This document shows positions 388-8,367 of a stretch of DNA of 43,831 bases, in pieces (the first letter of the stretch is position 1; every line of letters starts with the position of its first letter). The position numbers and the translations under genes were made by a program. The DNA is from Cyanobacteria bacterium P01_D01_bin.156 (GTDB taxonomy: Bacteria; Cyanobacteriota; Cyanobacteriia; Phormidesmidales; Phormidesmidaceae), in contig JBCCQQ010000053.1 of NCBI GenBank assembly GCA_039024555.1, forward strand, positions 1 to 43,831, read 5' to 3'. The notes beneath the pieces were generated by a model. The model saw only the letters and a program-made list of their open reading frames with translations. It made no database searches and was not told the DNA's origin.

Positions 388-1002
388 CTAGAATAGGCCA
401 TCAATGTTGTAACCCAGGCCAATCATAAAGTGAACGGTAATGTCGTCTGCTAGGGTTACATTGCTTTGACCGTTGAGGGTAAAGCGTTCACTAAAGGGAA
501 TATCCACCCCTGCACTGACTAAAGGTGCAACGTCATCTTCTGTCGCATTAATGGCGATACCGCCGCCAACATAGGGATAAAGGCTAGCGTTTAGCACATC
601 GACAGGGGACTGAAAGTTAAATGTAATCGGTGCAAGTACGCCTACTTCATCGTTAATGATCACGCTGGGGCGCACAGCAAGCTGGGGCGCAACGCTAAAC
701 TTACTGATTACTGTTAGACCCACTTCTTCTAGGGCACCATCACCATCGCCAGTTCCTACACTGATGCCTAAACCTACAAAGTCGCTGGCTGTGCCATCAC
801 CACCGCGTACTCCTCGTTCCTGGGCAAGCTGTGGAGTCGTATCCTTTAGCTTTGCTGGATTAATCACATCGTTATTGAGACCTACATATGTCTCAGTTTG
901 AGCTTGTACAGCCATGTGTGATGTCATTAACAGCCCTAGGCTAATAGATATGGCCTTACATAGCTTTGCTGTGTCGTGTCGTAGCTGATTTTTAATAGTC
1001 AT
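388..1002 (-). CDS. Small outer-membrane beta-barrel protein
   Basis: Signal peptide ending AVQA, amphipathic beta-strand motifs (YPYVGGGIAI, SAGVDIPF, MIGLGYN) and a C-terminal Phe. Confidence 0.7.
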   Translation of the reverse strand: MTIKNQLRHDTAKLCKAISISLGLLMTSHMAVQAQTETYVGLNNDVINPAKLKDTTPQLAQERGVRGGDGTASDFVGLGISVGTGDGDGALEEVGLTVISKFSVAPQLAVRPSVIINDEVGVLAPITFNFQSPVDVLNASLYPYVGGGIAINATEDDVAPLVSAGVDIPFSERFTLNGQSNVTLADDITVHFMIGLGYNIDGLF

Positions 1003-5428: not shown

Positions 5429-6775
5429 TCAGATTTGTTTTTGAGCTTGGATAAAGCTATCTACTTCCAGCTGTAGCCATTCTTTTTCTGATAGTGATAG
5501 CGATGTCCCAAATTGGTGGCTGTATATACCAACCCTCAGGGCCAAGGTTTTCACTGGATAGTCATTTCTCAAAAATACGGTTTCCAGGACCATGCGCTCT
5601 AGGTCGTCTGCGCTGCCCTGAGCCACCTTTTGCCACAGCAAAAATTTGCGTTTTAGACAGTATTCTTGGGAGTCGATCACCAGAGAGACCCGTTCTAATA
5701 TGGTCCACAGGGTTCTCCAGGCGATACCCAATCCCACTAGCCAAAAGGGTACAAAAAATACGACTGCTGCTGCTAGCGGGAAAAATGGCAGCACGGCTAG
5801 ACCCACAAACCAAGCGATGGCATTCCAAGCCACAGCCAGGGTGACATGGCCTCGAGCCGCAGCTTTTTGGAGACCAGTAGGTGGCACGTTCAGGGATAGG
5901 TGACGTCGGTCCCTATGAAGTTGAATTCTACTGCCAGCGGGCTGTGGTGTTAGGGGCTGAAGTTCCGTGGGATCGGATAAGGCTAGGAGTGCTGCGCTGG
6001 CCGACTCAAATCGATCTTCCATCAGCGGTTCAATTAATCTATCCAGCCAGGTGGCAAACGATGGGGATAGGGAAATCACGGGGCGAAAGTCGATGGTCAA
6101 GCGTTTTTGGGGCAAATCTCCTGGGTGCTGATGGGTGAGTAGTGCCAGTAAGGTGGTGCCTAATCCATAGAGATCTGTAGTGGGAAAGGCGTTTCCCCGA
6201 AATTGTTCGGGGGCCATATAGCCAAAGGTGCCAACGACGGTGCTACCACAGGCAATAGTGTTTTGGTAAACGGTTTGAACCGCCCCAAAGTCCACTAAAA
6301 AGATACGGCCATCATCACTGCAAATGATGTTCTGGGGTTTAATGTCCCGATGAATAATTGGAGGGTTAAGACTATGGAGATATATCAGTACCTGCAGAAT
6401 TTCGGTGCCTATATGACTGGCATCGGCTTCAGAAAACCGATGGTCTGCTGCAATCATCTCGGCTAAGGATTTACCTGGGGCCAGTTCTTGAACAATATAG
6501 AAGTAGCGATCGCGTTCCGTATCTACCTGGAAATAATCTACGTATTGAGGAATTGCTGGATGGTTTAGATTCTTCAGAACCTGTGCTTCCCGCTCAAACA
6601 ATTCTAGCTTTTTCCAATCGCTCAGGCTTTTAATGGATAGCTCTTTAAGAGCTACGGAATCACCGTTGCTAGTGTCCTTAGCCATGTAGGTGATGCTGCT
6701 TCCCCCCTGGCCCAGGATCGATAGAATCCGGTAGCGATTAAGGATAATTGAACCAGATGGCTGAGCATCGTGCAT
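5429..6775 (-). CDS. Hanks-type Ser/Thr protein kinase with C-terminal transmembrane helices
   Basis: LGQGG, VALKEL, HRDIKPQN, DFG and GTFGYMAPEQ motifs, then a hydrophobic hairpin near residues 310-355. Confidence 0.93.
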   Translation of the reverse strand: MHDAQPSGSIILNRYRILSILGQGGSSITYMAKDTSNGDSVALKELSIKSLSDWKKLELFEREAQVLKNLNHPAIPQYVDYFQVDTERDRYFYIVQELAPGKSLAEMIAADHRFSEADASHIGTEILQVLIYLHSLNPPIIHRDIKPQNIICSDDGRIFLVDFGAVQTVYQNTIACGSTVVGTFGYMAPEQFRGNAFPTTDLYGLGTTLLALLTHQHPGDLPQKRLTIDFRPVISLSPSFATWLDRLIEPLMEDRFESASAALLALSDPTELQPLTPQPAGSRIQLHRDRRHLSLNVPPTGLQKAAARGHVTLAVAWNAIAWFVGLAVLPFFPLAAAVVFFVPFWLVGLGIAWRTLWTILERVSLVIDSQEYCLKRKFLLWQKVAQGSADDLERMVLETVFLRNDYPVKTLALRVGIYSHQFGTSLSLSEKEWLQLEVDSFIQAQKQI

Positions 6776-6889: not shown

Positions 6890-7021
6890 ATTTCCAAAAA
6901 AAGTACCCTGCGACCCGAAGGTGCAACAGGGTAGGGGCAACAGTTAAACGCTTGTGCTGTAAACAGAATCGCTTAGATGACTGTTTTGGAGAGTTGTTCT
7001 ATGCCGGTTTTTAGAATGTCC
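6890..7021 (-). ncRNA. Putative small RNA, copy A of a tandem pair (5' end may extend to ~7140)
   Basis: Repeated at 7217-7348. Ends in hairpin TACCCTGTTGCACC-TTCG-GGTCGCAGGGTAC followed by T7 on the minus strand. No conserved coding frame. Confidence 0.6.
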
Positions 7022-7216
7022 CAAATGTGTGCGAGAAAAAGTGAGTAATATCCTCCAGGAAATCAGGAAGGTTGATGGAGGTGAATGCAGTCCAATTGTT
7101 TGAACCAAAACGGTCTGATTCCCTACCGGTGAATACGTTTCAACCCCTTATATAAGAATTCCTTTACCTTTTTTCTGATGCCTGTAAAGTCTCTGCAGGG
7201 GGTGATTAGGACTTTC

Positions 7217-7348
7217 ATTTCCAAAAAAAGTACCCTGCGACCCGAAGGTGCAACAGGGTAGGGGCAACAGTTAAACGCTTGTGCTGTAAATAGAATCGCT
7301 CAAGTGAATCTCCTCAGCAGTTGTTGTATGCCGGTTTCTAGAGTGTCC
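7217..7348 (-). ncRNA. Putative small RNA, copy B of a tandem pair
   Basis: 83/84 identity to copy A in the 3' block and 27/30 in the 5' block, with the same UUCG terminator. Confidence 0.6.
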
Positions 7349-7400
7349 ATAACCCTTGTATAGCCTTTGTTTCAAGGGTGTGACCTTTAACACGTAGAAC

Positions 7401-7548: not shown

Positions 7549-7592
7549 GCTCTAACATCTATGGAACCCCATGGATGTTAGAGCACTTTTTT
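7549..7592 (+). terminator. Intrinsic terminator-like hairpin
   Basis: GCTCTAACATCTATGG-AACC-CCATGGATGTTAGAGC (16-bp stem, one G-U pair on the plus strand) followed by ACTTTTTT. Confidence 0.65.
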
Positions 7593-7659: not shown

Positions 7660-8367
7660 TCAATTAGTGTCCGATGGAGAACCGAATCGATAGCCTTTAC
7701 CGTAAACGGTATTAATTAAAACTGCTTCGCCGTCATGTTCTACTTTGCGTCGTAACAACCGCATCTGAGCCGCTAGGGCATTACTACTGGGCTGTGTCGT
7801 TGTGCCCCAAACGGCATCATAAATCTGTTGGTGGGTGAGCAACTGATTGGGGTGTTGCATCAAATATTTCAGAATATGAGCCTCTTTTTCAGATAGCTCA
7901 ATAGTTCGTTCAGGTAGAATGCCACCACCCCGCTTCGCGATTTGATTCGCACTATCCAGGGTTAAATCGTCATACTGGAGTGTTGTTGTTTGATTCTCTT
8001 CACGAATGGGTGGTCGTCGTAATAGCGCTCTCACTCGTGCTAACAGTTCTCGCAATTCAAAGGGTTTGACTAAATAATCATCGGCACCAGCATCTAAGCC
8101 CTCCACCCGATCATCTAATGTATCTTTTGCAGTGAGAAAAAGAACTGGGGTAGTTAACTGTTGCGATCGCAACTGCCGACACATTTCCAATCCGCTTAGT
8201 CCTGGCATCATCCAGTCCAGAATCAACAAATCGAACTTACCATCCACTGCCAAGGTATAACCTGTCTCTCCATCATGGGATACCTGCACGCTATACCCTT
8301 CTCTCTGTAGTACACGACTCAGGGGGTCGGTCAGTTCCACTTCATCATCGACCAGCAAAATTTTCAT
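7660..8367 (-). CDS. manR: OmpR-family response regulator, ManR-like
   Basis: Receiver domain (LLVDDE, LILDWM, KPF) plus winged helix. ELTDPLS and PSSNALAAQMRLLRRK resemble Synechocystis ManR (Slr1837) as recalled. No cognate kinase is adjacent. Confidence 0.7.
   Translation of the reverse strand: MKILLVDDEVELTDPLSRVLQREGYSVQVSHDGETGYTLAVDGKFDLLILDWMMPGLSGLEMCRQLRSQQLTTPVLFLTAKDTLDDRVEGLDAGADDYLVKPFELRELLARVRALLRRPPIREENQTTTLQYDDLTLDSANQIAKRGGGILPERTIELSEKEAHILKYLMQHPNQLLTHQQIYDAVWGTTTQPSSNALAAQMRLLRRKVEHDGEAVLINTVYGKGYRFGSPSDTN

Follow-up and report, generated by a model that had tools for sequence, protein, structure and literature searches.

What is encoded by two closely similar 132-nt units whose divergence is concentrated in a single short block? 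The window—the whole 43,831-nt stretch of cyanobacterial DNA that was analyzed—carries two ungapped copies, at 6890–7021 (copy A) and 7217–7348 (copy B), offset by 327 nt. Our coordinates agree with those of the preliminary description of the pair, and a recount on the minus strand reproduced its block identities of 27/30, 7/18, and 83/84. Of the 15 mismatches, three are at unit positions 6, 11, and 23, eleven lie within 31–48, and one is at position 58; a concentration of 11 of 15 in one 18-nt window arose once in 200,000 random-placement trials. The preliminary description read this constant–variable–constant pattern as the scaffold of sibling minus-strand sRNAs that share a terminator and carry different targeting segments, possibly a guide-like system.

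Folding of the 132-nt units was not better than that of shuffles (z = −1.5 and −1.1), a simple consensus scan of the window called neither the array promoter nor the array terminator, and BLASTN, proposed earlier as a check for further copies, found no third copy of the unit in this genome. The octamer GCGATCGC, which we take to be HIP1, was counted 2,557 times in this cyanobacterial genome. The array sits between the genes for an RppA-type regulator and a Ser/Thr kinase, each of which adjoins the RNA in 1 of 83 loci, the window's own:

7660–8367, minus strand: RppA-type response regulator, upstream neighbor, outside the unit; NCBIfam NF041734 above cut-off.
5429–6775, minus strand: Ser/Thr kinase, downstream neighbor, outside the unit.

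Between the rppA stop and the array lies a perfect 16-bp hairpin followed by a T-run (7549–7592, plus strand), which would end transcription running antisense to the array.

Homologs supplied the comparison from which the unit could be dissected. By BLAST, each of the 21 same-genus genomes carries the unit, as 2–4 tandem copies. An exact 17-nt scan of a species collection returned 103 stretches: the named multicopy records were Leptothoe, Adonisia, and marine Leptolyngbya types, Phormidesmis types had a single copy, and of about two dozen stretches from outside the cyanobacteria, all but one weak row, which was dropped, failed the profile and were chance matches. We searched 151 cyanobacterial genomes with a covariance model built from only the RNA part and refined in one iteration; 47 of them, spanning 12 families, gave matches with E below 1e-6, with 19 of these 47 strong matches not training sequences. 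The model gave no strong match in families f2, f4, f5, f18, f20, and f22. Covariance model R1 matches the copy A RNA at E = 1e-16, copy A being itself a training sequence. A 12-nt exact pattern applied to 401 genomes was rejected as unspecific, the 30 loci inspected being chance matches.

Read against these homologs, each unit is probably a complete small-RNA gene, made up of a dyad operator, an unconserved spacer, a −10 box, and a predicted RNA of about 63 nt:

7327–7350, minus strand: copy B operator, a 24-bp dyad (10-4-10) spanning roughly −65 to −42 relative to the predicted start.
7298–7326, minus strand: copy B promoter spacer, 29 nt, including the variable 18 nt; low column information.
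7292–7297, minus strand: copy B −10 hexamer GATTCT; the base two positions upstream is a conserved G.
7223–7285, minus strand: copy B predicted sRNA, 63 nt, with the core at 7267–7279, the terminator hairpin at 7231–7260, and U7.
7000–7023, minus strand: copy A operator dyad, differing from copy B at 4/24.
6971–6999, minus strand: copy A promoter spacer, 29 nt; the variable block described earlier is 6974–6991.
6965–6970, minus strand: copy A −10 hexamer GATTCT, with A2/T6 conservation.
6896–6958, minus strand: copy A predicted sRNA, 63 nt, with the core at 6940–6952, the terminator hairpin at 6904–6933, and U7.

The RNA start is placed 7 nt after the −10 box. On this alignment, the variable 18 nt belongs to the predicted promoter spacer and stops 4 nt short of the −10 box, and the 30-nt constant block is mostly putative upstream operator. 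Differences between copies A and B number 4/24 in the operator, 12/29 in the spacer, 0/6 in the −10 box, 1/6 in the discriminator, and 0/63 in the RNA. Sibling minus-strand sRNA genes with a common terminator are supported, and different targeting segments are not, the predicted RNAs being identical at 63/63 positions. Likewise, the copy A stretch earlier taken for an sRNA segment complementary to a ribosome-binding site belongs to the operator and the spacer and is not included in the predicted RNA.

The promoter assignment rests on an alignment of 121 of 127 distinct rows (one non-cyanobacterial row and partial and weak rows were dropped), anchored on the 13-nt core so that core invariance is partly by construction. 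Peaks at A2 and T6 together with an upstream G are the signature of a sigma-70-type −10 box; in the 121 copies, A2 is conserved in 114, T6 in 116, and the upstream G in 111. The −10 box of the window copies is a weak consensus match. In 110 of the 121 copies, 45–46 nt separate the end of the operator from the core. Among 49 distant homologs, an A2/T6 hexamer (CACACT, GACACT, CATAAT, and the like) lies 29–31 nt after the operator in every one, against 8–13 of 49 in windows that start at offsets 5–17. Operator-to-core distance spans 41 to 55 nt in the same homologs; with hexamer spacing fixed while core distance varies, the constant quantity is operator-to-promoter geometry.

Operator and terminator each carry their own signature. 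The operator is a 24-bp dyad in which two pairs are complementary in 65 of 65 distinct sites and a third in 86%, with a symmetry score of 0.40 on the chosen axis vs. 0.14–0.30 on eight other axes. It is present in all 19 homologs recovered by the RNA-only model from outside its training set. In the terminator stem, double-sided changes occur at 10 of 10 pairs (62 distinct rows), and pairing stands at 92.7% vs. 35–53% when the stem is slid. The C(UUCG)G loop and U7 noted in the preliminary description are both present in the window sequence, but the UUCG loop is not retained in homologs.

This arrangement bears directly on the guide-like reading, in which ~130-nt scaffold RNAs would carry an exchangeable 18-nt targeting window. 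Concentration of the A/B divergence in a window of near-fixed length, arrays of 2–4 units across the genus, and two exact viral matches of the copy B 18-mer all speak for it. Yet the window lies between operator and −10 box at promoter spacing, upstream of the predicted RNA; the poorly conserved stretch is in fact about 25 nt long, and spacer length varies from 29 to 31 nt. Most families have a single copy of the RNA gene, and no effector gene recurs beside the RNA loci, whose neighbors are housekeeping genes that differ between lineages. The exact-match check against viral sequences returned nothing for the copy A 18-mer, and the two copy B matches have no flank similarity; a core-plus-stem pattern matched viral contigs eight times, never with a terminator.

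The history of the spacers also counts against guides. Across 63 same-genus copies, spacers fall into classes, with a mean identity of 0.48 within a genome vs. 0.81 to the best copy elsewhere; they are inherited between species, not newly acquired. Taken with the position of the variable segment and the missing effector linkage, this leaves a guide-like system highly improbable. Tiny peptide genes are, if anything, less credible still. The variable blocks do end in same-frame stops (TAA and TGA) and copy B has an ATG with a 16-codon ORF, but copy A has no ATG, all three first-block differences are nonsynonymous, and in the 63 same-genus copies the start is often absent, and premature stops or frame shifts affect many of the copies in which it survives. 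The peptide gene was rejected on this lack of a conserved reading frame.

For the small-RNA gene pair, the same 63 copies give a picture of how tandem units may evolve. RNA bodies show higher identity within genomes (0.84) than across genomes (0.77), a pattern that fits gene conversion. One promoter class has a second palindrome, TAnGC-N6-GCnTA, centered near −36 (L006–L023, first and third copies); it is degenerate in copy B of the window and lost in copy A. After tandem duplication in the genus, the RNA would thus have stayed the same while promoter spacers diverged and some gained this second palindrome, and the copies probably raise dosage or answer different signals. Short decayed partial cores beside intact units (L021 at ~2133–2176, L013 at ~2007–2033) indicate that array turnover is ongoing. 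In a named Leptothoe record (L098), a transposase-like ORF pair lies within the array and splits the first copy from the rest. A near copy of the RNA core occurs inside some promoter spacers (last or second copies of L011, L008, L021, L020, and L006; L231); these core-like words may represent a read-through decoy, an old duplication, or a DNA site.

The usual family locus places the RNA gene after genes for a NIL-domain ferredoxin and a membrane protein, facing an alpha/beta hydrolase gene. The genes that flank the RNA locus of relatives lie here on two other contigs (L293 and L294; G000:C39 and C25), indicating that the pair was relocated in this genome. Family f32 has a variant core, and its RNA gene is mostly divergent from hemB, with two cases upstream of prfC; the hemB/prfC-type genes bear the adjacent Nostoc PCC 7120 tags alr4380 and all4379, and from this gene context we read f32 as Nostocaceae-like. 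Alternatively, the 63-nt part might be just the 3′-terminal portion of longer transcripts, or an amplified but silent element bearing a terminator, a reading that gains from the same-strand gene upstream at the usual locus. Against it, operator and −10 box accompany the RNA through many gene contexts, divergent neighbors included, and the window pair lies away from the usual neighbors with both promoters intact, from which we infer that the promoters moved with the RNA. We regard this reading as quite improbable.

What, then, would such an RNA act on? Exact-complement scans of 20 genomes pointed to one gene: in three families the core complement lies just ahead of its AGGAGG and TTG start. The encoded protein has two LysM domains and an M23 domain (Pfam LysM and Peptidase_M23) with intact HxxxD and HxH motifs; its best NCBIfam matches, ActS, DipM, and NlpD, are all below cut-off. 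Orthologs occur in 124 of 151 genomes. We hand-chose 80 leaders, from 46 of 47 RNA-bearing genomes (one was omitted because a contig end cuts its leader) and from 34 genomes without a model match. A duplex with the genome's own RNA is predicted in 46 of 46 RNA-bearing genomes, with a mean of −22.9 kcal/mol and the weakest in G136 (−10.7 kcal/mol). The median pairing site runs from −36 to −22 relative to the TTG start, 7–9 nt (median 8) 5′ of the Shine–Dalgarno sequence.

Covariation between RNA and leader carries the case for pairing. The core change U5-to-C faces a leader G in three f23 and four f32 genomes, and compensatory leader changes occur at two positions in G178 and at one each in G156 and G166; a compensatory match in G130 was judged by eye. 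Exceptions are G168, with two mismatches, and four genomes that take the position-3 change as G-U. For the 42 of 46 genomes with gap-free alignments, pairing cells were counted with the register set by best pairing: at inner-core positions, RNA U lies opposite G in 25 cells and is mismatched in 1, RNA G lies opposite U in 5 and is mismatched in 4, and RNA A and C are Watson–Crick in 169 of 172 cells. This wobble asymmetry and the lineage-matched compensation are what RNA–RNA pairing is expected to produce. Cognate RNA–leader pairs beat permuted pairs in 20,000 of 20,000 shuffles, in which kin are not independent. Together these observations make the leader of the LysM/M23 (NlpD-like) gene a well-supported predicted base-pairing target of the 13-nt core.

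The target leader ranks 1 of 5,577 in this genome, with query and window picked after the target had been seen; an earlier scan placed the target gene 19th, via a different start codon, and an ATG-biased scan missed it and gave no 8-mer enrichment. A core-complement pattern followed by ATG found no common target in 26 family genomes, the pattern being blind to a TTG start. The site, at up to one mismatch, is present in 37 of 46 RNA-bearing genomes vs. 12 of 34 without a model match; in 5 of the 34, the Shine–Dalgarno sequence was unfound or probably misplaced. Rescanning 10 of these 34 revealed diverged homologs in G027 and G130, whose RNAs are, by eye, complementary to their own leaders and come with no dyad; seven of the rescanned genomes carry the site with no RNA found.

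These seven genomes speak for another account of the site: a real RNA whose core, like the leader site, is a DNA- or protein-binding motif (a shared operator, or a leader hairpin maintained for its own function), with the RNA having other targets or sequestering a protein. In many genomes the site contributes to a leader hairpin, and such a hairpin might conserve it independently of the RNA; core-like words recur inside some promoter spacers, and a second leader, described below, has its site inside a dyad. The wobble asymmetry and the lineage-matched compensatory changes fit RNA–RNA pairing instead, the distance from core to promoter is free, and the terminator lies directly 3′ of the core. 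On balance we consider a shared binding motif unlikely. The pair is likely to represent two genes of the same base-pairing sRNA, each with its own diverged promoter, with the LysM/M23 gene as predicted target.

For this sRNA pair, the predicted chain of events would begin with a dimeric activator binding the 24-bp dyad and RNA polymerase recognizing the −10 box 29–31 nt downstream of it, as the conservation pattern suggests. The resulting RNA of ~55–65 nt would end at the intrinsic terminator, whose structure is shown by covariation, and the 13-nt core in its unpaired 5′ part would pair in trans with the LysM/M23 leader. There the predicted leader structure takes in the Shine–Dalgarno sequence; across most families examined (L427–L506), the LysM/M23 gene retains both its TTG start and a structured AGGAGG, which suggests tight translational control. 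In standby-site logic, ribosomes load via a stretch adjacent to a structured site. Opening the ribosome site costs ~9 kcal/mol with the RNA present or absent (of 47 leaders, 18 open more easily once the RNA is bound, 11 less easily, and 18 show no change), so that ribosomes probably load via the upstream stretch that the RNA would cover. Pairing beside the Shine–Dalgarno sequence would most likely block ribosome loading and lower the level of the cell-wall factor. Folding does not decide between repression and activation; on this model we somewhat favor repression as the sign of regulation, and activation or stabilization would be the less probable outcome.

The search for an activator started from the operator. 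In this genome, the asymmetric operator matrix gave 548 matches vs. 427–498 for shuffled matrices, and the symmetrized matrix gave 43 intergenic matches at 12 bits vs. 16–33, neither yielding a clear regulon; operator plus −10 pattern across 91 genomes gave no common regulon among the 45 loci inspected. The strongest non-RNA dyad here (L290, G000:C30:18340–18363) precedes a LuxR/GerE-type gene and sits between it and a ureE-like gene. A dyad of at least 10 bits lies upstream of 9 of 32 LuxR/GerE-type genes, including the two that prompted the idea; the count is 0 of 31 on the downstream side, and permuted matrices give 0.9. Across 91 genomes, 24 have both this regulator family and the RNA, 54 have neither, 2 the RNA only, and 11 the regulator only; shared ancestry can explain much of this co-occurrence. 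The LuxR/GerE-type family is the best candidate activator of the dyad, an assignment made from sequence association that we hold as possible rather than probable. Separately, in G016 a LuxR/GerE-family gene (L401, ~807–819, minus strand) has a perfect core complement across its start codon, a possible feedback loop and the sole case of a core complement among the LuxR-family loci checked.

A second candidate target, ranking 2 in this genome, is a DVUA0089-family PEP-CTERM-like gene. Its leader (L292, G000:C45:34193–34993, minus strand) contains an 18-bp core complement within an imperfect dyad, a site retained in some genus relatives. Leaders of this family beat shuffles (P up to 0.025) in 10 of 16 cases within the genus, two of them with perfect 16–17-bp matches; none of the 22 other PEP-CTERM-like genes of this genome comes near the DVUA0089-family match.

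Apparently, then, this is an undescribed sRNA family, widely conserved in filamentous cyanobacteria, with a genus-specific tandem expansion. Few cyanobacterial sRNAs have a known target; here promoter, seed, and target site are defined by prediction, with pairing kept by compensatory changes across about a dozen families. A wider scheme, which we put forward tentatively, would run from a LuxR-type regulator through the sRNA to the level of a LytM factor, septal peptidoglycan remodeling, and cell–cell channels or filament breakage, with the marine genus adding identical RNAs behind differently wired promoters and a surface-protein target. If true, a core multicellular trait would come under control at the RNA level, via the LytM-factor class tied in Anabaena to septal nanopores and to communication between cells (PMC6463045). 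The locus also illustrates that a constant–variable–constant repeat can be operator, spacer, and gene instead of guide RNA.

Comparison with cataloged RNAs agrees with the earlier statement that no named family could be assigned: at gathering level, Rfam gave 0 matches in the window and only a tRNA in 20 homolog loci, and permissive scans of the window and of the homolog loci gave one chance-level match each. A search of sequencing runs listed no RNA data set holding the sequence, an outcome that carries no information on expression. The literature searched by sequence words or by topic held no description of the RNA. Searches of the supplements of PMC4734099, PMC3610870, and PMC5580265 did not return it (one unrelated row appeared in PMC4734099); PMC12873609 reports 409 novel cyanobacterial RNA structures, and its supplement may list it. 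The RNA may already be tabulated as an unnamed start site or structure in published tables.

Yfr1 offers a close functional parallel. As described in PMC6974561 and PMC4734099, it is a short, near-constitutive RNA of all cyanobacteria with an invariant unpaired motif, CACUCCUCACACC, and a terminator; in Nostoc it pairs with leaders of cell-envelope and peptidoglycan genes, mostly repressing them, with amiC2 activated. The RNA described here resembles it in shortness, invariant unpaired motif plus terminator, and predicted envelope-gene leaders (PMC6974561), but it lacks CACUCCUCACACC, gives no Rfam Yfr1 match, carries a conserved operator, and was not found in several of the families searched. 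NsiR1 (RF02399), described in PMC6596454, is likewise an sRNA of filamentous cyanobacteria whose short units are arranged in tandem; here, by contrast, there is no Rfam match, the two window promoters have no TCCGGA box, the array is not upstream of hetF, and the RNA is single-copy in most lineages. PsrR1/SyR1, named in the preliminary description as needing exclusion, is a trans-acting cyanobacterial sRNA of the translation-blocking kind. Its 131 nt match the 132-nt repeat by coincidence: the predicted RNA here is 63 nt with a cell-wall gene as predicted target, and the two Synechocystis sequences (PMC6596454), compared by eye, contain neither the core nor the operator block.

Neisseria NgncR_162/163 are tandem or multicopy sibling sRNAs sharing a seed. 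Vibrio Qrr and Listeria LhrC are also tandem or multicopy sRNA genes sharing a seed. The present RNAs differ from all three in being unrelated in sequence and in being identical or nearly so within a genome while their promoter spacers diverge. On the target side, the literature searched contained no sRNA control of Alr3353, the LytM factor of Anabaena PCC 7120, which interacts with AmiC1 and affects septal nanopores (PMC6463045). The predicted target described here is a LysM plus M23 protein, and it resembles this LytM factor.
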